Shown here: one piece after another, positions 3,302-42,142 of the stretch | How the letters are laid out: every line of letters starts with the position of its first letter | Numbering within the stretch: position 1 is the stretch's first letter | DNA from: Tortispora ganteri | Lineage: Eukaryota | Reading direction: 5' to 3' | NCBI GenBank assembly: GCA_003707115.1 | Contig: PPNB01000022.1 | Coordinates: forward strand, 62,001-126,000 | DNA: 64,000 nucleotides | The notes under the pieces: model-generated | Told to the model about the DNA's origin: nothing | What the model saw: the letters and a program-made list of their open reading frames with translations, nothing else | Database searches by the model: none | Translations under genes and position numbers: made by a program

Positions 3302-5575
3302 TCATCCGTGTTTTGAGCCAAAATAATCGCCTTCACCGGTTCTTAGCAGAGAGAAGGACGAAAAATCTTTGAAGGGGTCACTGACGCTCCTCTTAGATCT
3401 GTGTTTAGGCAGTGTATCCGACGATTCATTAGCAGAAGATTCCAACTCCTTATCTCCCTCGACCTTGTTTAAGTTAGGTACCGATAGCGTAGTGGATGCA
3501 ACATGCCCATGACCGTTTTTTATATTATAAAGGTGCTTATCTTCAGGCGTGCGACTTTGTTGACACTGTATAGCATCATTCACAGCTGAAGGTGTAACGG
3601 CGAGGCGGTGCTTGTTCTCATAATCGGCGGCAGAAAGCGTGCCCGGTGCAACGGGTACCAATGAGTTGCCGTCATCGCCTTCGTCTTCCTCTTCTTTGTG
3701 ATAAAATACTGGTTCAGCAGCTAATTTTTTAACTAGTTCTGGAACATTCGCTGCAGGAATACCGTCATCTGCATCGCCAATGGGACCATCCGAGAATTTA
3801 GCGGCGTCATCGAGTGTGGTGGTTTCAAAATGTCCATTATTGTAGACGCCGTCAAACATTTCAAAATTCTGTTGAACATTAGCAACAGAATCTGAAGTAA
3901 TATCCAACGACTCTGACTCTTTGACAGAAGAGAAATTAGACGTGTCGGCATCGGTGCACAGTTTAGGGACTATAGGGGGAGTCTGGTTTCTCAACAAAGC
4001 CCATTGAGTATTCTTGAAAAATGGGTGAGACTTAATATCAGAGGCGCCAGCGCGTGAGCCAAGTCTTCTTGATTCATCTTTTGTTAGCAGACGTCGAATC
4101 AGATTTTTGCAGACGTTAGAGATTGGTGGTGATTTTACGTCCGGAAAGAGTACCTCGTTGCGCAGAATATTAGCAAAAGTGGAATTGCGGGTTTTACCCT
4201 TGAACGGACTGGTTGCATAGAGCATCTCGTAGATTAGTATTCCAAGAGTCCACCAGTCAACAGCAGAAGTATGGCCTGTACCTCTGATTACTTCTGGGGC
4301 AATGTACTCTTCGGTGCCAACAAAAGAGTTCGTTCGGAAGTCAGCAACACAGGCCTTCGTATCAATTGCAGGGAAAAAGTTATTTAGGGTTCGCGATGAA
4401 GAATTGGAACTAGAAGAAGAGACGGTCGATCCAGCAGAGTTGACAATAGTCGGGCGTCCATTAGACTCAGTCTGTTTAGAGAGATCGAAGTCAGAAAGCA
4501 TTATGTGACCAGATGCATGGAGTAGAATATTCTCTGGCTTGAGGTCTCGATATATAAAGCCCATAAGATGGAGATATTCGAGAGCTGCTGTTACTTCAGC
4601 TGCATAGAAACGAGCGTCTTTCTCTGACAGGCATTTGCCAGTCTGTGTTTGCAGTGCCCTAAAGAACTCTCCGCCCATGCAATATTCCATACATAAATAA
4701 AGATAAGAGTCCGATTGGAAACAGTGATATAGTGTGACAATAAAAGGATGATTAGCTGTCGCAAGAATTTCCTGTTCAGCTAGTGCTCGTTTAATTTTGT
4801 TCCTTTTAATCATTTCAGATTTGGACAGCACTTTCATTGCGTGAAGCTTGCCAGTGGCCTTCTCACGAGCCAAGTAGACTTTACCAACATCGCCTTTTCC
4901 GAGCAATTTTATTTTCTCAAAAGAAGAGGGCCCAACTGTCACTGGATTCATTTTAGTAGCATTTGTGGAGTAAGAGCGTTCCCTTACCGGTGTATCTCGA
5001 GAGTTACGGCTGGACGAAGGCTGACTGCGTGGAGATTGACTATTTTTGAAATTGGGAGCAGAAGAAGTCCTCGGCAGTGGCGGTGTAAGCAGGGAAGGTG
5101 GTGGTTCGAGTGGTGCAGTTGCAGAATCGTCAGTGGATTCGTGTGTAAGGTCGTGTAGATGCTGTTGAGGTTGTTTCGTGGATGATTTAGCCTGGGAGGT
5201 CGACGCCGAGTGTCTAAAGGTGCGTGAGAATGGTGACGCAAGCGGTGAAGAAGGCGATCTAAAGCGCCTGATTTTCGAAGAGAACTTCGATGTGGCGGAT
5301 TGATCAGCTGCAAGTTTTTGTTGGCTTGTATGTATGGCTTGTTCCTCCGACAGATTAACTGCCGCGAGTTTCGGAGAAGTCGACCCAGGAGTGATAGTTG
5401 TTGAGGTGATAGGTACGATTCCTTCAAGACGTGGTGAGACAGAAGGCGAAGAGTTGGAGGAGTTTGAGGAAGGGAACTTCAGAAACGATCTCAACTTGGA
5501 CACGTTGGCGTGAGACGAAGAATCGTGGTCGACTTCCTTGGTTATTTCGACAGCCAAAGCAGGTGCAGGAGGCAT
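3302..5575 (-). CDS. FPK1: AGC-family flippase kinase Fpk1/Kin82/Nrc-2
   Basis: [21 protein letters not shown] in place of [30 protein letters not shown]. Confidence 0.92.
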
Positions 5576-31573: not shown

Positions 31574-34468
31574 ATGGAGTCGCTGGAAGTGCATCCACGA
31601 AGCTTTGTCATTAAATGGGTGTCGATTCCAAAGGGCTGTACGCTTTACTATTCGATAGCACCTAAAAAGAAATCAATTAATTTCGGTATCTTCTCAAAGA
31701 ATCCCTCGACCGCGAGCGTGCCATATGAACAACACTACGTTAACCTAATAGATGATCCATCCTCTATAAACATTCACCGCAAAAGTGTTGTCTCTTCGCG
31801 TCACAATTCTTCGGTTTCAAGTGATGAATCGCTTTCAGTTCTTTCAGACACGCTGTCCATGTCTGGTCTCTTCCCGGTTCAATGGAAAGGACGGATTCCA
31901 GGCAACGACACCGTCGAAGGCTCTTTCTGCCCTGATTCGACATGCAATTCGCTCGAATTTGCCCTAGTCTTCGACAATCTTTTTTCCAAAACTACATCAA
32001 AGTCCATTCGCTTTTCAAAATCCCTCTCAGCCCCCAGCTCTATCTTCCCCCTTACCTCGTCTACTGCAGATAACTCTGCTATCCGCCACGGGACTCTCCT
32101 AAAACACAAGAGACGCAGAGGACAGGGTTTCGCGAAACGCCAATTTTTACTCGATCGTCGAACAGGCGTGCTTTCTTACTTTCTTAATTTGTCTTCTGTC
32201 TTGCGTGGCTCAATCCAATTGCATGACGCCGCCATCTCCGCCAAGAAGGCCACGCGCGAATTCTTCATAGACTCTGGCTCCGAAGTTTGGCACTTAAAGG
32301 CGCTCACTGATGATTCATGGCAATCCTGGTTTGATGAATTCAGTTTGATTAAGGCGATTCCCCCAGCATCGTTTACTCCAACATTGACCCATCCTGACCT
32401 ACCTGCCTCCTCTGCGTCTCGAATTTCTCATATACTCACCAACGCTGCCTCCTCCTGGGCTCAGGTCGACGCGCTCTCTGACCGTATAGAAAGACTGGTC
32501 GGCTCTCTTGCGTCAGCTGTTTCGGAACGGTCTGTTGAACCTAGCATGCAAAGAAGGTCTTCTTTTCTGCGACTCCGTCGTCGTACCAACGATGATTTAG
32601 GAACCGCATCCGTGACTAACTCTGCTTCATCTTTCACTCCTGCCTCTAACTCCTCACGATCTTCATTAAATGAAGAGTCAGACATCTTACTTTCAGCTTC
32701 TTCAGAGTTAAACCATATAGCGTCTCTGCTCAGGTCAATATCGTCTCTGAACAAATCCTCCATAGAGCATGCACAGTCAGACATTTCCCTGTCAATTGAT
32801 AATGGACGTCTAAAGACTCCAGAACCTTTGTCTCCTATTATATCAAGCCTCCGCAGAGCTTTCAGTATCTCCTCTGGCGAATCGGTTTACGCAGATGCAA
32901 TGGAAACATTATCACCTCCACCCCCTAGCCAGAGGATAGCCGCTACGCAAGCACAGAACTACGAACCAGAAGCCGATTTACACGATCAAGGCCAAGTGGT
33001 ACTACTCCCCGATCACGACGATGATTATAACGAGTCATCTGAAGGTGTGGACTCCTACAACGATATGTCTGAAACTGAAGAAAGTACAAGCTCTGTCAGT
33101 GACTTACCAACAACAGATGAGATGGTATCTCATGCTGCCAGTACGGCAGACCCCGAAGAGCACCCTGAGATTAGAGATTTATCTCCGCTTCCATGGAAAT
33201 CGCCTGTTAAACGAAGGACTAACGTCCCATATTGCGATATAGCACCTATTAGCTTGTTTGCGTTCCTAAGAAAAAATGTGGGAAAAGATGTTACGTCTAT
33301 CGCTATGCCTGTTTCGTCAAATGAACCTATTGGGTTATTGCAACGTTATTCTGAGGCTATGGAGTACTGTCACTTACTGGACGAAGCTGCAGCCGTGAGC
33401 AATAAAAACGGTGAACAGATTTTTCTAGTGGCTGCATTCGCTATATCTACGGGCTCTAACAACAGGGAGAGAGTGAGAGCCAATCGGAAACCTTACAATC
33501 CTTTGCTTGGTGAAACGTTCGAACTTGTCAGAGAAGACATGGGATTCCGGCTCATCGCTGAGAAAATATCGCATCGCCCACCCGTTATGGCCACATACTC
33601 AGAGTCGCAGAATTGGACCTTTCAACAAGCGCAGCGTCCCGACCAAAAATTTTGGGGTAAGAGCGTGGAAGTAATGACTGGAGGCACTGTTATTTTGAAT
33701 ATACATGGCCCTGATGGTAACACAATGTATAAATGGAATATGCCGACCAATATGTTGAGAAACTTGGTTGCTGGAGAGAAATACTTAGAGCCGCAAGGCA
33801 GTTTTAGTATTCATGGTTCGGACGGTAGCTCTGTTGTGATTCAGTTTAAGTCAGGAGGAATGTTTAGTGGAAGAACAGAGCGAGTTATGGCTACAGGTTC
33901 AGATAGGAAACGTCATGCATATAATCTCACGCTTACCGGCAGTTGGGTTGAAGATTTAGAATTGGCTACAGTTGACGGAAAGCCCATTAAAGATCTGATT
34001 TGCATAAATTATCCACAGGATAATGATTCTGAGAAATTAAGAGAGTTGCGAACAGTGAAAAGCAAGCTTAAGAATGAGAGTCGATTTGAAGTTTGGCATG
34101 TGGGTAATATTGTTGAAGACCCTGTTCACCACTACGGGTTTACTGAGTTTGCAGCACAATTAAACGAGATAACTGAGATTGAAGACGGTCATATGGCGCC
34201 TACCGATTCACGACTGCGACCTGATCAGAGATTGTGGGAGCAAGGAGACGTCGATGCTGCGCAGAAGTGGAAAGACAAAGTCGAAGAGAAACAACGCGAG
34301 CGACGTAAACTGTACCCTGAAGGCCAGGGTACGTTCATGAGCAAATGGTTTGAGAAAACTAACATGGAATGGGTGAGCAATGAGGCTCTGTTTACGCCTA
34401 AACGAGGTAAAGACAGCTACTGGGCGACAAGAGAGAGGCAGGCATGGGAACCGTGTGAGCTTTGGTGA
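31574..34468 (+). CDS. OSH3: Oxysterol-binding protein Osh3 (GOLD, PH and ORD domains)
   Basis: MESLEVHPRSFVIKWV, FDNLFSKT (GOLD); GTLLK..RR.GQGFAKR (PH); KPYNPLLGETFE, EKISHRPP, PTDSRLRPDQ (ORD). Confidence 0.93.
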   Translation: MESLEVHPRSFVIKWVSIPKGCTLYYSIAPKKKSINFGIFSKNPSTASVPYEQHYVNLIDDPSSINIHRKSVVSSRHNSSVSSDESLSVLSDTLSMSGLFPVQWKGRIPGNDTVEGSFCPDSTCNSLEFALVFDNLFSKTTSKSIRFSKSLSAPSSIFPLTSSTADNSAIRHGTLLKHKRRRGQGFAKRQFLLDRRTGVLSYFLNLSSVLRGSIQLHDAAISAKKATREFFIDSGSEVWHLKALTDDSWQSWFDEFSLIKAIPPASFTPTLTHPDLPASSASRISHILTNAASSWAQVDALSDRIERLVGSLASAVSERSVEPSMQRRSSFLRLRRRTNDDLGTASVTNSASSFTPASNSSRSSLNEESDILLSASSELNHIASLLRSISSLNKSSIEHAQSDISLSIDNGRLKTPEPLSPIISSLRRAFSISSGESVYADAMETLSPPPPSQRIAATQAQNYEPEADLHDQGQVVLLPDHDDDYNESSEGVDSYNDMSETEESTSSVSDLPTTDEMVSHAASTADPEEHPEIRDLSPLPWKSPVKRRTNVPYCDIAPISLFAFLRKNVGKDVTSIAMPVSSNEPIGLLQRYSEAMEYCHLLDEAAAVSNKNGEQIFLVAAFAISTGSNNRERVRANRKPYNPLLGETFELVREDMGFRLIAEKISHRPPVMATYSESQNWTFQQAQRPDQKFWGKSVEVMTGGTVILNIHGPDGNTMYKWNMPTNMLRNLVAGEKYLEPQGSFSIHGSDGSSVVIQFKSGGMFSGRTERVMATGSDRKRHAYNLTLTGSWVEDLELATVDGKPIKDLICINYPQDNDSEKLRELRTVKSKLKNESRFEVWHVGNIVEDPVHHYGFTEFAAQLNEITEIEDGHMAPTDSRLRPDQRLWEQGDVDAAQKWKDKVEEKQRERRKLYPEGQGTFMSKWFEKTNMEWVSNEALFTPKRGKDSYWATRERQAWEPCELW

Positions 34469-34570
34469 AGTGTGCGTGTGCAAAAAAAAAAAAGAAAAAA
34501 AAAGCCCGAAAAAGAAAAAACCTAGATGAACAAGGAATACTTATGAATGATATGATATATTGCATAGAGA

Positions 34571-35176
34571 TCAGAATAGAGAAGTGACCGTGTCCGTAGA
34601 GATGTAGGACAACGATTTAACGAACGGCTGGACAGAATCATAAAGATCAGTTAGGTCCTTGGGGAGCAAGACCGAGTCAAACTCGGGACCCAAATGCCGG
34701 ATTACATGAGTCATTCCTTCGTAAGAATCACATGGTATGATTTGAGAGAGAGAATGAACAAGTGGGCTGTATAGTCGGAACATGTCCGGAGTGGCTGAGC
34801 CGGATGAATCGATTGAGGCAGAGGCGGATCCAGGTTCGGGCGTTGATTCAGGTTTGACCGATTTGAAGATAATTACGAGATTTTTATCTCTAATTACGTT
34901 ATCCAGTAAAATGTCTAGATCACCTGAATCGTTGGCCGTAGAATTCACCACAACTATTGCCTTCTTCTTCAAGCTAGAGGCCCATTTTGATTTTGATCTC
35001 GGTTTCGGTTTTGGCTTATCTAAGTCTGATGGAGGCTGTTGGTCGCCACTTTTAGATGTCCACAGCTTATAGCCAGAGTAAGCAAGAGCTACTATGCTAG
35101 TAGCAACTACAGCCGCTCCTATGACCGCGCCAATTCCTGCGACCTTCAAATTGCGGCGGTGTCGAGCTCGATTCAT
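34571..35176 (-). CDS. PEX22: Peroxin Pex22-like membrane anchor of Pex4
   Basis: Basic N-terminus plus one TM; IIPCDSYEGMTHVIRHLG and V.PFVK resemble S. cerevisiae Pex22 IIYCDSMDGLWSCVRRLG and IGRFVK (recalled). Confidence 0.7.
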   Translation of the reverse strand: MNRARHRRNLKVAGIGAVIGAAVVATSIVALAYSGYKLWTSKSGDQQPPSDLDKPKPKPRSKSKWASSLKKKAIVVVNSTANDSGDLDILLDNVIRDKNLVIIFKSVKPESTPEPGSASASIDSSGSATPDMFRLYSPLVHSLSQIIPCDSYEGMTHVIRHLGPEFDSVLLPKDLTDLYDSVQPFVKSLSYISTDTVTSLF

Positions 35177-35328
35177 GTTTGAAAAGTTGCAACAAGTGGT
35201 GAAAGAGGAGGGCTAGAGTAATTGCCGTATTTGGATAAAAATCAGAAATAAGGTTTGGCATGTGAAGATCGCACAGCATATACAACGCGGTACATGTAGG
35301 AGAATTGCAGCTAGAACAACGTACAAAT

Positions 35329-36066
35329 ATGTCTGTATCTAGTTCTGAATGGCGGCGCAGGCAGATATTAAAGACATTTCCGTTTCTTGTAGGCGTTGGG
35401 AGGCGTATTGTATTCAGAGACGGCACATCGGTGGCGCTAGTTGAGCGGAAGGAGTTAGAACACCGGCAGAGGAACGCGACTGTGCGCATAGAGATGTGTC
35501 TTGCAACTATTGACTTGGTAATTTACTGCTCAGAACTTATACAGGCAATTGCAAATGTTCCAAGAGAGAATTTGTACAGCGTCGGAGACTTTGTGTGTGG
35601 AATGAACAGTTCGGGAGCGATCCAGCGCGCCCGAACTAAGAAAGAATCGGAGGCATTGACAGATGTCTTTTCCCTTGTAGTTTGCATGAGTTCGCGAGGT
35701 CAGATTGCTCCGGGGTACGTTGTTGGCGGCAAAAAGCACAAGAACTCGTATAGTAGTCTAGAGAAAGACTGTATGCGCGGTGGGGTGTCTATTGACGGAC
35801 TTCTAGACCGAAAGAATGTTATCTGCTGGTATAAGAAGGTGTTTTGTTTGCATACAAACCAGTATGCAGATAAAACAAAGGATATCGTGTTGATTGTGGG
35901 CGCTGTGGGCTGCGATGATAGTTTCGAGAGTATCCTGAAAGGACATGTGAGCCTGAAGAACGTGAAGATAATCGAGGCCCCGCCCGGCTATGCCTACTTC
36001 ACGCCACTAGAGCACTATATATTCAGAAGAATGGGTCGACACTTAAACAGCAGCTCTATGAGCTAA
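35329..36066 (+). CDS. pogo/Fot1/CENP-B-like DDE_1 transposase-derived protein, catalytically degenerate
   Basis: Colinear DDE_1 blocks: PRENLYSVGD, LVVCMSSRGQIAPGYVV, SIDGLLD..VICWYKKVFCLHT, IVLIVG, NVKIIEAPPG..FTPLE..IF; uninterrupted 245-aa ORF; no TIRs seen. Confidence 0.65.
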   Translation: MSVSSSEWRRRQILKTFPFLVGVGRRIVFRDGTSVALVERKELEHRQRNATVRIEMCLATIDLVIYCSELIQAIANVPRENLYSVGDFVCGMNSSGAIQRARTKKESEALTDVFSLVVCMSSRGQIAPGYVVGGKKHKNSYSSLEKDCMRGGVSIDGLLDRKNVICWYKKVFCLHTNQYADKTKDIVLIVGAVGCDDSFESILKGHVSLKNVKIIEAPPGYAYFTPLEHYIFRRMGRHLNSSSMS

Positions 36067-36167
36067 GTAGCCTGAGTCATGAAGATTTCTTTACAAAAGT
36101 CCTGCCTTTTACATGATCTGTGGTTTAGGTTTGACATTTAGGAAAACGACATAACTATAGAGAAACG

Positions 36168-36854
36168 ATGTGCGGCGGTCATGGATTACATGCTAAAATT
36201 GCGCCATCGATTTTATCGAGCGATTTTGCCAACTTGGAGCGCGACTGTAAACATATAATTGCGTCAGGTGCAGATTGGTTGCACATTGATATAATGGACG
36301 GTCATTTTGTGCCTAACATAACTATGGGCGCGCCTATAGTGCAATGTTTGCGGAAAGCTATTCCGAAAGGTGAAACGTTTTTTGATTGTCACATTATGGT
36401 GTCTAATCCGAAACAGTGGGTTGACGATTTTGCCAAAGCGGGCGCTGATCAGTACACGTTCCACGTTGAAGCTACCGAGAACCCTTCGGAGCTCGTAGAT
36501 TATATCAAATCGAAGGGTATGCGTGCGGCGTGTGCGATCAAACCAAAAACTCCCGCTTCAGCTGTTTACAAGTTTGCCGAAAAGCTCGATATGATTTTAG
36601 TGATGACTGTAGAGCCTGGATTTGGTGGCCAGAAGTTCATGCCCGAGTGTATGCCGAAAGTCAAAGAACTGCGCCAGAAGTTTCCGGATGTCGACATACA
36701 GGTAGATGGCGGGCTCGCCCCCGATACAGTGGATATGGCCACTACTGCTGGTGCGAACGTCATTGTCGCAGGTACCTCTGTGTTCAAAGCACCAGATGCA
36801 AAGGAAGCCATCGATACTCTACGTAGTTCGGTTACCAAGAACATCCTTGAATAG
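36168..36854 (+). CDS. RPE1: Ribulose-5-phosphate 3-epimerase
   Basis: [48 protein letters not shown]. Confidence 0.96.
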
Positions 36855-36905
36855 TCATTACTGTTACTGTACCTGTGTTGCGATGCTTATTGCGATTTAT
36901 TCATG

Positions 36906-37301
36906 CTAGTCTTTAGCTCGTCCCAGTGCGTAGCCTGCAGAAAAAGACAGGCTGGCGATAATGGCGATCCCGGCCATGTAGGAGAGTCTTGCGTAGGTAT
37001 CATTACTAGTTGCCGCCAGCCTTCTGTTTCGTGCACTGCGTATTCGTCGTCGTCTGCGAAGTCGCATACGTGCATCTTCGTCATCTAGCTTTGTTGATGG
37101 TGACCGCGATCCTGTAGATGCTCTTGATAAGCTTCCTGATGAGTTTGACCGGTTGTTTGCCCGCTCATTGTTGATCCGTCGTATAATTGATTCAAACGAC
37201 GCCTTCAAGTCAGCGTTGTCACCCTCTACATCTTTCATATTGTACGTGCTATCGCTCGAATATTCTGATCCATCGTTTAGATCGATCCACGACCCTTCCA
37301 T
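36906..37301 (-). CDS. Small tail-anchored protein with N-terminal SWIDL motif
   Basis: 131-aa ATG ORF; Ser-rich body, Arg cluster, C-terminal TM YMAGIAIIASLSFSAGYALG and short basic tail. Confidence 0.7.
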   Translation of the reverse strand: MEGSWIDLNDGSEYSSDSTYNMKDVEGDNADLKASFESIIRRINNERANNRSNSSGSLSRASTGSRSPSTKLDDEDARMRLRRRRRIRSARNRRLAATSNDTYARLSYMAGIAIIASLSFSAGYALGRAKD

Positions 37302-37546
37302 TGCAGCTACTGTTCTTCTCAAACTGCGGTGGTGATCTGCTAGCAGTAGATTCTGGTATCGTTGATGTCCGGATACAAGCTAACCTTGAAATCGCGAACC
37401 TTATTGACCAAAGTCCCAATACTCAGCCAATCATGTGCACCGGTAAACTCTGCTGCCCGTTATCTCCGAGTACCGTGTCTTATTTCTTTTACGGGCACAT
37501 TCAGCCAAACAAAACAACAAGGATTCGGCATCTTACCGCGCGCCTA

Positions 37547-39664
37547 ATGGATACTACCACCAGTGCGCGTTTTCGACGCCGAAACCGCATCCCTTCCGCA
37601 TGTCGCTTGTGCCGTATGCGCAAGCTTAAATGCGATAAAGCACGTCCCGCGTGCGGTACCTGTAAGGCTGCCAACGCTGAATCGGCATGTGTGTACGAAA
37701 GGCAGCCATGGGAACTGGATTTAGGTGAAATCAAAGATCTCATAGCAGAAAATCAAAGACTTAGAAAACTTCTCAGCGATTCTGGTCAAACAACAGAGTT
37801 TAATGGCCAGCAACCTGCGTCTGGCTCTGCTAATGGTGTGGTTCTACGATCTCCAGGCATTTTCGCTATCAAGAACTCACGCGTGCTTTATCTAGGTATC
37901 ACCAGTTGCAAGGGCCTTATATATTATGACAGATTCATTCAAAAACCAGTTAACAGGGCATTTGGGTCCTTTAAGACATCGCTACTAGACTTTCTTGACC
38001 CAGATGAGTCCACTGGCAATTTCCCTGACTCAGCTGTTCGCTACTTCAAGTCTCATTTGCCTTCCCCGCTTCATCTCATGGGCTCTGCATCCTCACATGA
38101 TGTCCTCAACAGTATAATCAGGTGTTTTCCCACTTCCACGGTGTCTAATATGCTTATAGACCGTTTCTTTATCGCCGTGTACCCTTTAATCCCTCTGCTC
38201 GACGAGATATCTTTCAGAAGACGCGCGTCCGCGACCCTCGAGATCGTATCTTCATTCAGCTCTGCTGCAAAACGCCTCCATTCAAATGATTTTGGATTTG
38301 TTGCGCTGTATTTTCTTGTCCTCAGACTTGGTAGGCTATCTCTACCCTTCGATTGGACGCCGGAAATGGGCGTAGGCACCAACACTCTTCCGCATACCTA
38401 CAGTAATATAAAAGCTACCGCGGTAGGACTCGGTACCGAATACTTGTTTGCGGCCAGATGCTGCTTGTCTGCTTACGACTTTTTGCGCAAGTCTGAGATC
38501 ACCACTGTTCAATGTCTCCTACTTCTTTGGTTCGACATGCGCGCTTCACCAGAAGAAGGTGACGGTGCAGACGGCTCAGATGGCGCCGTCATATTTGGTC
38601 TCGCAGTAGAAATATCGAGATCAATCGGTATTGATCAGGAGCCTGCTCCGCAGTTCAAGATTTCTCCAAACGTCATATACCTTTGGAGGAAGATCTTTTA
38701 CTATATGTACTATTACGATTCAGTACTGGCGCTCAATCTGGGTCGTCAGCCATGCTTCACACCGGGAACATACTCTGTAATTTTACCTGATCCTGATCCT
38801 GCGAACGTCCCGGTGTCGTTCAAAGACAGCAGGCTGCGTCAGGAACTCGAAATTCTCAAGTTCATGAATGTCCAATATTCGGCTACCGCAATCAAGCGAC
38901 AGGCTATCCAAGATTTGCTAAGAATTGACGTACGGCCTAGCCGCGAACAACTTTGGGCACATTATCAAAATACTGCTAGGTTTATTGATTCTGAACTCAT
39001 ACCGGAACTTAAAAATGCCATAGAAGACAAGTCCGCGTCAAGCGATGCATGCTATTCGCGGCTCAGTACGCTCTATTCGAACATTCTATCCGTGCAAGCT
39101 GCTATATTTCATATCTTACTGCTTTCTTTTGATGATGTGGAGCCAGATAAGTGTCTAGAAGACTATATGTTCAACGACTGTATACATATAGGTTCAATTA
39201 CCGCGACGAAAACGCTCGAATACGTATCCACTATGTTTGCACGCAAATCTATGCACGTTTGGTTGCTTGTTCCAATCCATACGCATAATATTATGCACGC
39301 GCTATTTCTGTCTTCATCTCTGCTGCTTCGCGCGTGTGCAGAGTGGGTAATCAGTTTCAACGAATCTGAATCTCTGAATCGACTAGTTTCCGCGTGGGAT
39401 CACACTATGGGTGATTTCAGAATCTACAGCCAGCATTATTATGCAATATACCGACTGTATGAGCCTATGAACAACCTCCTGTCTGAGATCAAGGGTTTGC
39501 TAAATCCAGTGAAATCAAACACACCACTAGAACCACCTCTGGCGCCCAGCGAAGTTCTAGGCGGTTCAGATGATATTCTGTCTAACCCGGATATATTAAA
39601 TCCAGAGTATCCGCAATTTATTGAGTCGAATGACCTCGACTGGCTGCTAAATTTCGAGTTCTAA
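37547..39664 (+). CDS. Zn(II)2Cys6 transcription factor with fungal middle homology region (Oaf1/Hap1/Mrr1-like)
   Basis: RRRNRIPSACRLCRMRKLKCDKARPACGTC...CVY; GDGADG; LWRKIF; acidic C-terminus. Alternative in-frame ATG at 37433. Confidence 0.92.
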   Translation: MDTTTSARFRRRNRIPSACRLCRMRKLKCDKARPACGTCKAANAESACVYERQPWELDLGEIKDLIAENQRLRKLLSDSGQTTEFNGQQPASGSANGVVLRSPGIFAIKNSRVLYLGITSCKGLIYYDRFIQKPVNRAFGSFKTSLLDFLDPDESTGNFPDSAVRYFKSHLPSPLHLMGSASSHDVLNSIIRCFPTSTVSNMLIDRFFIAVYPLIPLLDEISFRRRASATLEIVSSFSSAAKRLHSNDFGFVALYFLVLRLGRLSLPFDWTPEMGVGTNTLPHTYSNIKATAVGLGTEYLFAARCCLSAYDFLRKSEITTVQCLLLLWFDMRASPEEGDGADGSDGAVIFGLAVEISRSIGIDQEPAPQFKISPNVIYLWRKIFYYMYYYDSVLALNLGRQPCFTPGTYSVILPDPDPANVPVSFKDSRLRQELEILKFMNVQYSATAIKRQAIQDLLRIDVRPSREQLWAHYQNTARFIDSELIPELKNAIEDKSASSDACYSRLSTLYSNILSVQAAIFHILLLSFDDVEPDKCLEDYMFNDCIHIGSITATKTLEYVSTMFARKSMHVWLLVPIHTHNIMHALFLSSSLLLRACAEWVISFNESESLNRLVSAWDHTMGDFRIYSQHYYAIYRLYEPMNNLLSEIKGLLNPVKSNTPLEPPLAPSEVLGGSDDILSNPDILNPEYPQFIESNDLDWLLNFEF

Positions 39665-41298
39665 GAAAGAAACGAAGGGGGAATATTGGAGCAAATCTCA
39701 ACATAATCTTGGAAGGAGGCGGACGGTTTGCGGCCAGCCCAAAAGGCGCACCAATTTGAATCGGGAATTTTGTAGGATCCTTTGCATCGTTCGAAGTACC
39801 ATTTATTAACTGGATTTGTCTTTCTTGATCTCCATATGACCTCGTCGGGGAACAGTCTAAGGACCATTGCTTTGAACACGATATCTGCCACGCCAGTTGA
39901 TCCTTGTGCGGATTTGGCTACGCCTATTTTATCTAAGTAAGGCACTATTTTGCCCGATGAGTTTGCCTTCTCGTATGTGATGATCGCACCGCCTGCATAT
40001 GTGTTGTCTGAGTCGATCGCCAGTATGATAGCCGCAACATTGTTGTCAACTCTACTGAGATAAGACTCGACGTCTAGTTTCTTTCCGAAAGAGTCCTCGA
40101 GCATTTGGATAAGGAGATCCAAATCTATTTCGTGGCAGTTTTTAAGAGAAAATCCTGAGTTATAGTCGGCTCGAACGATCTTTAGGGGCATGCCGCGTCG
40201 CAGGATTGTAGTGTTGAGCGTGGGCGTGCGTATGTTATCCAGTGGCAGGGAAGGAGAAGCTATGGGTCTATCGGTAAGCAGATTATAGACGACTGGATTT
40301 CGAGTAGAGTTGCCGATAGCTATTTCCGGGGTGGTAATGATACCAGTTGATGTTGTAGGGAGGACTGAGAGGATTGCGAACATTGCCTTGACATTTTCTA
40401 TATGTATATTTACGTCGTCTGGTGATATTTTTGAGCCTGCTAAAGCTGTGAGATCATAGATGATTTCGTCGTACTCCTGTAAGAGGTTGATAAAGAAATG
40501 AGCGCCGAGGTTTCGTTCAGAGGAAGGCACTCCACCGAGTGGTTCGACGAAGATGGTCTTGTCGACAGGTATATGGTACTTTGTGAGCATTTTGGCAAGC
40601 GCGAGGACAATGGAGTTGAGATCAGATCTGACGGAGACGTTACGTGTGGGCGAGTAGACAACATTGGTGATGACAGGGATGGCATCGCGCGAAAGCGGGT
40701 GTATGAGTCTTTTAGGGAGTGCAACATCTAGCGGAATAATCGAGGCCGGATCAAAGGAGACTGGTGTAGGAGAAACTGATGGTAGATCTAGGTGATCAGT
40801 TTCGTCAAATATACCGTCGAGTAAGCGGAACCTCTGACGATTTGTGGAGTTGCTGATGAACTTGTTAACAAACTCTGCATCTGCATCTACGACAAGAATT
40901 GACCTGAGACCGAGTGTATTAAGCTTGATCAGTGTAGCGGCGAGCATTTGCAGTGTGGCGTGATTGTGTTGGTCAAAATTGCGTACCTTGAAAATAGCCG
41001 AACGGAAGCCCGGGTTAAGTTCATTTGCGAACGCCTTTATTTCTTGAGGTGAGAAAAACGCTGGTACTTTTGCATGATGTTCAACTTCTAATGCTGTGCT
41101 CAATTGAGCGTTCTCTTTATCGTCACTACTAAATCGTTGCAGGTACTGTCTAGCATCGCGCTTAGTAGCCGACGATTGGAGCACGGTAGTGATAAGATCA
41201 CGTGTTCTATCTTTTGGGGTGTTGTAGGTGCGTGAAAACAGTCTAGTGAATTGTACATAATATGCGTTTCGCTGTAGATGTTTGTATTGTATTAGCAT
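39661..41298 (-). CDS. ARG2: Mitochondrial N-acetylglutamate synthase Arg2
   Basis: VLQSSATKRDARQYL, PLGGVPS, HFFINLLQEY, NLLTDRP..SPSLP, YLDK, WRSRKTNPVNKWYFER; ATG at 41298. Confidence 0.92.
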   Translation of the reverse strand: MLIQYKHLQRNAYYVQFTRLFSRTYNTPKDRTRDLITTVLQSSATKRDARQYLQRFSSDDKENAQLSTALEVEHHAKVPAFFSPQEIKAFANELNPGFRSAIFKVRNFDQHNHATLQMLAATLIKLNTLGLRSILVVDADAEFVNKFISNSTNRQRFRLLDGIFDETDHLDLPSVSPTPVSFDPASIIPLDVALPKRLIHPLSRDAIPVITNVVYSPTRNVSVRSDLNSIVLALAKMLTKYHIPVDKTIFVEPLGGVPSSERNLGAHFFINLLQEYDEIIYDLTALAGSKISPDDVNIHIENVKAMFAILSVLPTTSTGIITTPEIAIGNSTRNPVVYNLLTDRPIASPSLPLDNIRTPTLNTTILRRGMPLKIVRADYNSGFSLKNCHEIDLDLLIQMLEDSFGKKLDVESYLSRVDNNVAAIILAIDSDNTYAGGAIITYEKANSSGKIVPYLDKIGVAKSAQGSTGVADIVFKAMVLRLFPDEVIWRSRKTNPVNKWYFERCKGSYKIPDSNWCAFWAGRKPSASFQDYVEICSNIPPSFLS

Positions 41299-41434
41299 TA
41301 AAATGTGGTGAGTGGGTTGGTGGATGTTGGAGAAGTCTCCCTGATCGATAGAAGAGAAAGAAGAAGTAAGTATGTTACGTTGCCAATGTGAAGCTCTATT
41401 GTGGGTAGTAGTAGTATTAGTATTGTGTAACCAT

Positions 41435-42142
41435 TTAAAGTTTTGAGATGCTGTCTGCGAAATCGGCCATTGAATTGAAGACCAAGTCATAAGCTGGCAT
41501 TTTGTGTACTTCAGGTGTAGCTCCCCAACCGGGATCATCGTAGCGTCGATTTATCCAGACTGTCTTGAGACCTATCTCCTTGGCCGGGACGTGATCGTGG
41601 TACAGGCTTTGTGCGACATGAAGTATCTGAGCAGGGTAGATTCCGTGTGTCTGCTTAAGGTAGTTTAGCAAGAAATGAAAGTTCCTGGGATCAGGTTTGT
41701 ACGATCCGACGTCCTGTGCGGTTATGACGTCGTCAAATTCTATACCGAGTCGTGCTTCACTTGCACGGAATGATACACGGTCAACGTTCGACAGTACAAC
41801 AAGCCGGTATTTCTGTTTCAAGGTCCTGAGTGCGCGAGCAGAGTCTAGAAATGCGGGCCAGTCAGGAACCGAGGCGCCAAATGTGTTCGCTTCTATGCTA
41901 GTCACCGGCAGGTTCCATTCATCGGCGAGCATATGATATACAACAGACAATAGCTGCGAGTATACCATCTGCGGTGTTCGTTTCTGCTGATACGACTCGA
42001 GCCTAGCAAATGTCGTCAGCACATCTTCACGAGATATAGAGGCACGTCTTTCAATCAAAGGTCTGAGTGCTTCATAAATGCCAGTTTCCCAATCGATGAG
42101 TGTACCGTAGGTGTCAAATACGAGACATGTAATATCATTCAT
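41435..42142 (-). CDS. Haloacid dehalogenase type II-like HAD hydrolase
   Basis: FDTYGTLIDWETG, WPAF.DS, LSNVD, TAQDVGSYKP, HVAQSLYHDHVPA; ATG at 42142. Confidence 0.9.
   Translation of the reverse strand: MNDITCLVFDTYGTLIDWETGIYEALRPLIERRASISREDVLTTFARLESYQQKRTPQMVYSQLLSVVYHMLADEWNLPVTSIEANTFGASVPDWPAFLDSARALRTLKQKYRLVVLSNVDRVSFRASEARLGIEFDDVITAQDVGSYKPDPRNFHFLLNYLKQTHGIYPAQILHVAQSLYHDHVPAKEIGLKTVWINRRYDDPGWGATPEVHKMPAYDLVFNSMADFADSISKL

Follow-up and report, generated by a model that had tools for sequence, protein, structure and literature searches.

It is well established that pogo transposases have repeatedly been domesticated, Pdc2 being one of the resulting genes, and the usual explanation lies in their DNA-binding HTHs. 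Domesticated pogo genes named in the consulted parts of the literature include CENPB, TIGD, JRK, POGK and POGZ (PMC7386202) and, in S. pombe, Abp1/Cbh1/Cbh2 (PMC10799480). In the consulted sections of PMC7386202, Pezizomycotina and Basidiomycota are listed as carrying the Fot family of the pogo superfamily, and for Saccharomycotina Lemi alone is listed, in two species. Many putative TE co-options have been described in Saccharomycotina (PMC10799480, consulted in part), and 'Tortispora' is absent from the main text of that paper. Outside the pogo superfamily, the PgmL proteins of Paramecium are dead transposase derivatives that have been proposed to act as architectural subunits (PMC6143343, in the parts consulted). 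Our own literature search, mostly at the level of titles and listings, turned up no publication that describes a gene of pogo origin in Tortispora.

We analysed a window of 64,000 nucleotides from Tortispora ganteri (contig PPNB01000022.1, positions 62,001 to 126,000). Within it, an ATG-started ORF of 245 codons without internal stop (35329-36066, plus strand), here called P0001, was assigned by profile and alignment as a candidate DDE_1-like core derived from a Fot/pogo transposase, with a dead site, a short C-terminus and no recognisable HTH. A sequence-only reading had presented this ORF as an intact but catalytically dead pogo/Fot1-type transposase gene, packed between PEX22 and RPE1, and as a candidate new domestication. 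The uninterrupted frame at that place was borne out by the translation, by the Pfam assignments of the neighbours and by shuffling of the 991-bp gap between them, which gave an ORF of P0001 length in 0 of 3000 trials (maximum 205). The start of the divergent PEX22-like gene (34571-35176, minus strand; Peroxin-22-like by Pfam with an E of 1.5e-5, narrowly below the cut-off) is separated from that of P0001 by 152 bp, and RPE1 (36168-36854, plus strand; Pfam E 5.8e-73) follows 101 bp downstream. The start codon, preceded by A at -3 and followed by TCT, has a context like that of several window genes. No CTRAC branch-site motif was found in 35100-36200, so there was no sign of an upstream exon; with the divergent gene 152 bp away as well, such an exon was judged unlikely. 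The reported absence of TIRs also held, since no inverted pair was found between the 152-bp and 101-bp flanks, where the best match (7/8 to 13/20 bases) was at chance level. The copy number, a check proposed together with that reading, was determined as one protein match and one DNA match in the assembly, both lower bounds, with no dispersed copies. An exact-sequence look-up in a protein collection found 0 of 7 window proteins.

P0001 shows part of what defines a domesticated gene, namely a single copy, an intact frame and no TIR. It is like CENPB and TIGD3-5, as portrayed in the consulted part of PMC7386202, in being single copy, without TIRs and with a triad that is no longer recognisable. 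Compared with the Fot family as described there (PMC7386202, same sections), P0001 has a DDE_1-type core, colinear blocks and near-DD35D spacing, whereas the triad, the DNA-binding domain, the TIRs and the dispersed copies of active members all fail. P0001 descends from the active Fot family without being a member of it. The vertebrate pogo domesticates, according to the same sections (PMC7386202), retain the whole DDE domain and mostly one or two HTH motifs, whereas in P0001 the core is shortened and no HTH is detectable. Because those domesticates keep the full DDE and mostly their HTHs, an HTH-less core such as P0001 would be a variant.

The homology of P0001 lay below the reach of standard searches. 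Pfam gave no match at E<=1 for the whole protein and none at E<=10 for residues 78-245, and no match was obtained among PDB sequences. No relative was found with phmmer among 5.8 billion proteins in two length ranges (134-429 aa and 430-2000 aa, the latter a weak search), nor among 1.84 billion representative proteins. In metagenome contigs 146 pattern matches were obtained, of which 0 were confirmed, and viral contigs gave 0 matches to the Fot motif. In the ESM Atlas, the top match of P0001 was a cluster in which 59% of the members are DDE_1 (at a score of 0.94 and recognition 3296, with 173 of the 256 features shared), the ten best family-assigned matches were all of the same family or clan, and no usable match was left when PF03184, PF03221 and PF13358 were skipped. 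Fot references were gathered by a Fot-type motif, from 21 loci and a further 80 among the matches listed, giving 139 frames; a seed profile was matched by 114 of these, and the Fot/pogo profile was built from those 28 in which no fewer than 170 residues follow the motif. P0001 scored 12.0 bits against this profile (P 4.4e-6), a score reached by none of 5000 full and none of 2000 local shuffles (best 8.9), and it was the top-scoring of 102 window frames. A ranking of 2691 frames, taken from 625 kb of the genome, placed P0001 second (E 0.014) after a gene that we call P0002 (48.4 bits), with the next frame at 5.7 bits. A HMMER-type comparison with DDE_1 therefore came out differently for the two kinds of profile: Pfam DDE_1 gave no match, and the custom Fot profile scored above shuffles. 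Core identity to Fot transposases ranged from 15 to 24%, and the best values (20-24%) were to fungal Fot-type sequences.

The six DDE_1 blocks named in the sequence-only reading were all present in the translation; taken singly, only residues ~109-186 (35653-35886, plus strand) stood clearly above chance. The block equivalent to IECISA-PP (residues 109-150) was equalled by 0 of 500 shuffles and that equivalent to NGWT-W-F (residues 149-186) by 7 of 500. The second-D and third-D blocks were marginal (37/500 and 27/500, respectively), and the first-D block was equalled in 155 of 500 shuffles. The supposed end of the HTH in residues 1-78 was not borne out, 203 of 500 shuffles reaching the real score. 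On these comparisons the homology of P0001 to Fot transposases is real yet faint. The claimed pogo/Fot origin is supported at the level of the whole protein, by the ESM Atlas and by the Fot profile above shuffles, and is in our judgement highly probable.

The predicted RNase H-like DDE core was placed by alignment and an alignment-driven model at residues 76-238 (35554-36042, plus strand). In the alignment, G86 stands at the first catalytic Asp column (35584-35586, plus strand), with D87 at the following Glu column, V190/G191 at the second (35896-35901, plus strand) and E228 at the third (36010-36012, plus strand). The first and second columns were assigned by position only, because their blocks were not clearly above chance singly. 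The second column was V190 by MAFFT and G191 by the HMM alignment, the register being uncertain by one with no acidic residue either way. The coordinates reported earlier for G86 (35584), G191 (35899) and E228 (36010) were correct, and the accompanying spacing of 36 residues, near DD35D, was reproduced by the HMM alignment, whereas MAFFT gave 37. The alignment shows no DDD triad, in agreement with the dead catalytic site proposed before, and given a Fot origin P0001 is almost certainly catalytically dead as far as aligned residues can tell.

Both ends of P0001 differ from those of Fot transposases. The N-terminal 75 residues (35329-35553, plus strand) showed no significant resemblance to the Fot HTH/linker in shuffles and had pLDDT <50 over residues 20-49 in the model, and neither an N-terminal HTH_psq domain nor one of the HTH_Tnp_Tc5 type was detected by Pfam or profile. 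At the other end, the protein stops ~17 residues after E228 and is without the C-terminal helices of Fot transposases and P0002, a point that the earlier reader missed. A 24-codon stretch in the -1 frame over the stop (36042-36116, plus strand) is loosely like the next Fot helix and adds 2.1 bits to the profile score; it is possibly the lost C-terminal helix, in which case an old frameshift would have shortened the protein. A programmed -1 frameshift was rejected, since the gain was only 2.1 bits and 36051 C>T, seen in both DNA runs described below, is a stop in that frame. The single-sequence AlphaFold model of P0001 was unusable (pLDDT 32.6). The model from a 30-row Fot alignment reached pLDDT 69.7 and was high over most of the core, with the alignment steering the fold. 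Compared with structures, this steered model had its best matches in Mos1 at Z 9.2 (rmsd 3.2, 146 aligned), Metnase at Z 8.6 and Sleeping Beauty at Z 8.0, and Foldseek returned nothing at E<=0.001. We take the steered model to indicate compatibility with an RNase H-like fold only.

We further investigated if the frame was kept after the loss of the catalytic site. Conserved Fot columns were defined as the 35 columns that 85% or more of the references keep. P0001 keeps 13 of the 35 and active members keep 80-100%, a comparison in which the decay of P0001 could be inflated by a distant ancestral lineage, as the 28 references were picked by motif pattern; an ancestor far from the references would start with fewer conserved columns, though not without the triad. 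In neutral simulations (~0.5 substitutions per site, four templates with 2000 runs apiece, indels ignored), the core of 162-163 codons was still free of stops in 0.2-0.7% of runs once decay had reached the level of P0001. An open frame with such deep decay was rare under neutrality, and the frame was therefore very probably maintained after catalytic death. That selection was what kept it we consider probable.

The evidence on present selection was less clear. Variants were read from two DNA runs of two studies, one of which may be the source of the assembly. The frame of P0001 was open in both runs covering the ORF, with no indel and no stop. Its five variants comprised three synonymous and two non-synonymous changes (K105E and Y230D), and in the neighbouring genes 11 of 11 variants were synonymous and 0 of 11 non-synonymous. 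By hand calculation from site counts, the pattern gave P ~0.16 versus neutrality and P ~0.08 versus the neighbours, and the variant data separated P0001 neither from neutrality nor clearly from its neighbours. Over 32500-38500, 18 of the 19 single-base differences in the two runs sat in 34988-36960, a block of ~2 kb with higher divergence that spans PEX22, P0001 and RPE1.

Under a host coding model, the true frame of P0001 was the best of six, yet it ranked third from the bottom among the 43 ORFs of the window. After training on a larger set, the host-like coding score fell below that of P0001 in only 3 of 131 ORFs (200-399 aa), and shadow ORFs scored as high in 7 of 22 cases. Dissecting the composition, 4 of 131 ORFs were lower in amino-acid make-up, which for P0001 was within the range of active Fot references, and 11 of 131 were lower in synonymous codon use. 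An annotated T. caseinolytica orthologue of P0001 was found neither by phmmer at 134-429 aa or at 430-2000 aa (a weak search) nor among 1.84 billion representatives. T. caseinolytica is listed with 4657 genes (PMC5499181, seen in part), close to the ~4400-5100 per 9.2 Mb extrapolated from our ORF density, ORFs cut by stretch ends being lost from that figure, and the annotation is for this reason not grossly incomplete. A low-scoring ORF without Pfam match could escape the T. caseinolytica gene callers. The domestication put forward earlier was accordingly supported for the past, by a frame open despite decay, and not for the present, given the missing annotated orthologue, the atypical composition and the indecisive variants. 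Domestication of P0001 is plausible, the chances that it is functional now are about even, and present constraint on it looks weak.

P0002, the second dead Fot gene of the genome (L002:1312-3171, minus strand; G000:C657:45428-47284), is DDE_1-like and lies upstream of a SPO11-like gene. Unlike P0001, this single-copy Fot-type gene is full length (619 aa), retains HTH remnants, reaches 48 bits with the Fot profile and has a typical host coding composition in its DDE part; the residues in its triad columns are S, N and E. Its orthologue in T. caseinolytica, CANCADRAFT_32703 (ODV89452.1), is 85% identical, rising to 94% over residues 310-600, and the differences are clustered in the low-complexity linker. 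P0002 is a stronger domestication candidate than P0001. The two are alike in genome, superfamily and dead triad, and of the 14 conserved columns at which both are altered, 5 have the same new residue in the two proteins (1.2 would be expected; the crude P is 0.004). FastTree paired P0001 with P0002 at support 0.815, with 2.6 substitutions per site on both branches, and this pairing may be long-branch attraction. Over the core, P0002 was the least similar to P0001 of 29 aligned sequences (13% identity), and BLASTP between the two was not significant (E 0.06). From the shared replacements, descent of both from one dead gene appears possible.

Other pogo sequences were sought in the same genome. 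Besides P0002, no further dead pogo gene was found in 625 kb (6.5% of the assembly, hence low power). As to active pogo, no DDE_1 match over the Pfam cut-off was obtained in the assembly, and an intact Fot protein as query gave no match in a weak search that missed P0002 too. Of the HTH families, PF03221 and PF05225 had no match in the genome, and a PF18107 match under the cut-off sits in what we take to be a ribosomal-protein gene.

We propose that P0001 represents what is left of an ancient Fot-type pogo transposase, namely its catalytic-domain core, the frame of which was retained by the host long after the element died. Without the DDD triad, as judged by alignment, it would be unable to cut DNA, and neither profile nor Pfam recognised an HTH with which it might bind DNA sites. 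The remaining RNase H-like fold would then work through protein contacts, as a pseudo-nuclease subunit or modulator, under weak constraint. We tentatively assign this whole explanation a probability of roughly 0.45. A role as subunit or modulator is favoured by analogy with PgmL (PMC6143343, in the parts consulted), though the Paramecium proteins are of the piggyBac family and serve an active partner, whereas both known Tortispora pogo derivatives look dead.

The likeliest partner would be P0002, whose HTH remnants could supply DNA binding. That P0001 acts specifically with P0002 is doubtful. Doubtful, too, is a Tortispora two-gene system from one dead Fot transposase, in which the DDE-only paralogue P0001 would dimerise with a full-length, DNA-binding P0002 and tune the role of P0002 in chromatin or transcription. 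If this two-gene reading were true, pogo domestication would here have retained a dead catalytic fold alone, without HTH and too faint for Pfam, and more such genes would be hidden among yeast orphan genes. A retained HTH-less core would also isolate the role of the dead DDE domain itself, which is an open point for CENP-B-like proteins, and P0001 is a small, deletable yeast gene. Should P0001 be retained, some yeast orphan genes would be relics of transposases that Pfam fails to detect; should it instead be decaying, it would be a minor fossil, with the conserved P0002 as the lasting result.

The retained-core explanation has to be weighed against one in which a dead-Fot gene that the host once domesticated, and that may have arisen by duplication of the P0002 ancestor, has lost both ends and is drifting to a pseudogene with no current function. 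Such decay would account for the truncation at both ends, for a -1 stretch past the stop that may be a lost helix, for a composition in the lowest few percent, for two non-synonymous variants of five (indistinguishable from neutral, P ~0.16) and for the lack of an annotated T. caseinolytica orthologue. However, all 245 codons are open in both DNA runs, the start context is good, three of the five variants are synonymous, and the orthologue search was made on annotated proteins, from which gene callers tend to miss low-scoring Pfam-less ORFs. We regard decay as a real possibility, short of our preferred view. A plain transposon fossil that was never useful to the host, its frame open by chance, would share the weak composition and the missing annotated orthologue and would explain the lack of a DNA-binding domain. 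This is unlikely, as a core at such decay stayed stop-free in only 0.2-0.7% of neutral simulations and the searches of the assembly and the flanks revealed neither a further copy nor a TIR nor any active relative.

Two further explanations concern what P0001 does or where it came from. The sequence-only reading had suggested a transposase inhibitor. Such a protein would poison the multimers of an active pogo transposase, and a dead core without DNA-binding domain would be its expected anatomy. No target was visible for it, as the assembly yielded no pogo sequence that passed the Pfam cut-off and none by the intact Fot query (the weak search that also missed P0002), and the core identity of P0001 to Fot transposases is 15-24%; we give this role very little credence. 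Alternatively, P0001 might be an unrelated orphan gene resembling DDE_1 by chance. The lack of any Pfam, phmmer or PDB match, four of six blocks not clearly above chance singly, and a good model obtained only when steered by the Fot alignment (pLDDT 32.6 from the single sequence) would be expected of such a gene. That two different methods, the ESM Atlas and the Fot profile, reach the same family, and that the blocks are colinear with near-correct spacing, makes a chance resemblance quite improbable.

Several minor observations were made in the course of the analysis. Among the 21 Fot-motif matches in prokaryote genome contigs, seven (L004, L009, L016, L017, L020, L021 and L022) looked fungal-type by eye, and fungal-type Fot transposases in prokaryote assemblies are most likely fungal contamination. 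In the window, an ORF of 131 codons at 36906-37301 (minus strand) is without a credible Pfam match and has a hydrophobic end, and both of its variants are synonymous. Two genes run towards each other at 37433-41538, one for a Zn2Cys6 transcription factor and one acetylglutamate-synthase-like, and their stop codons overlap by 4 bp.
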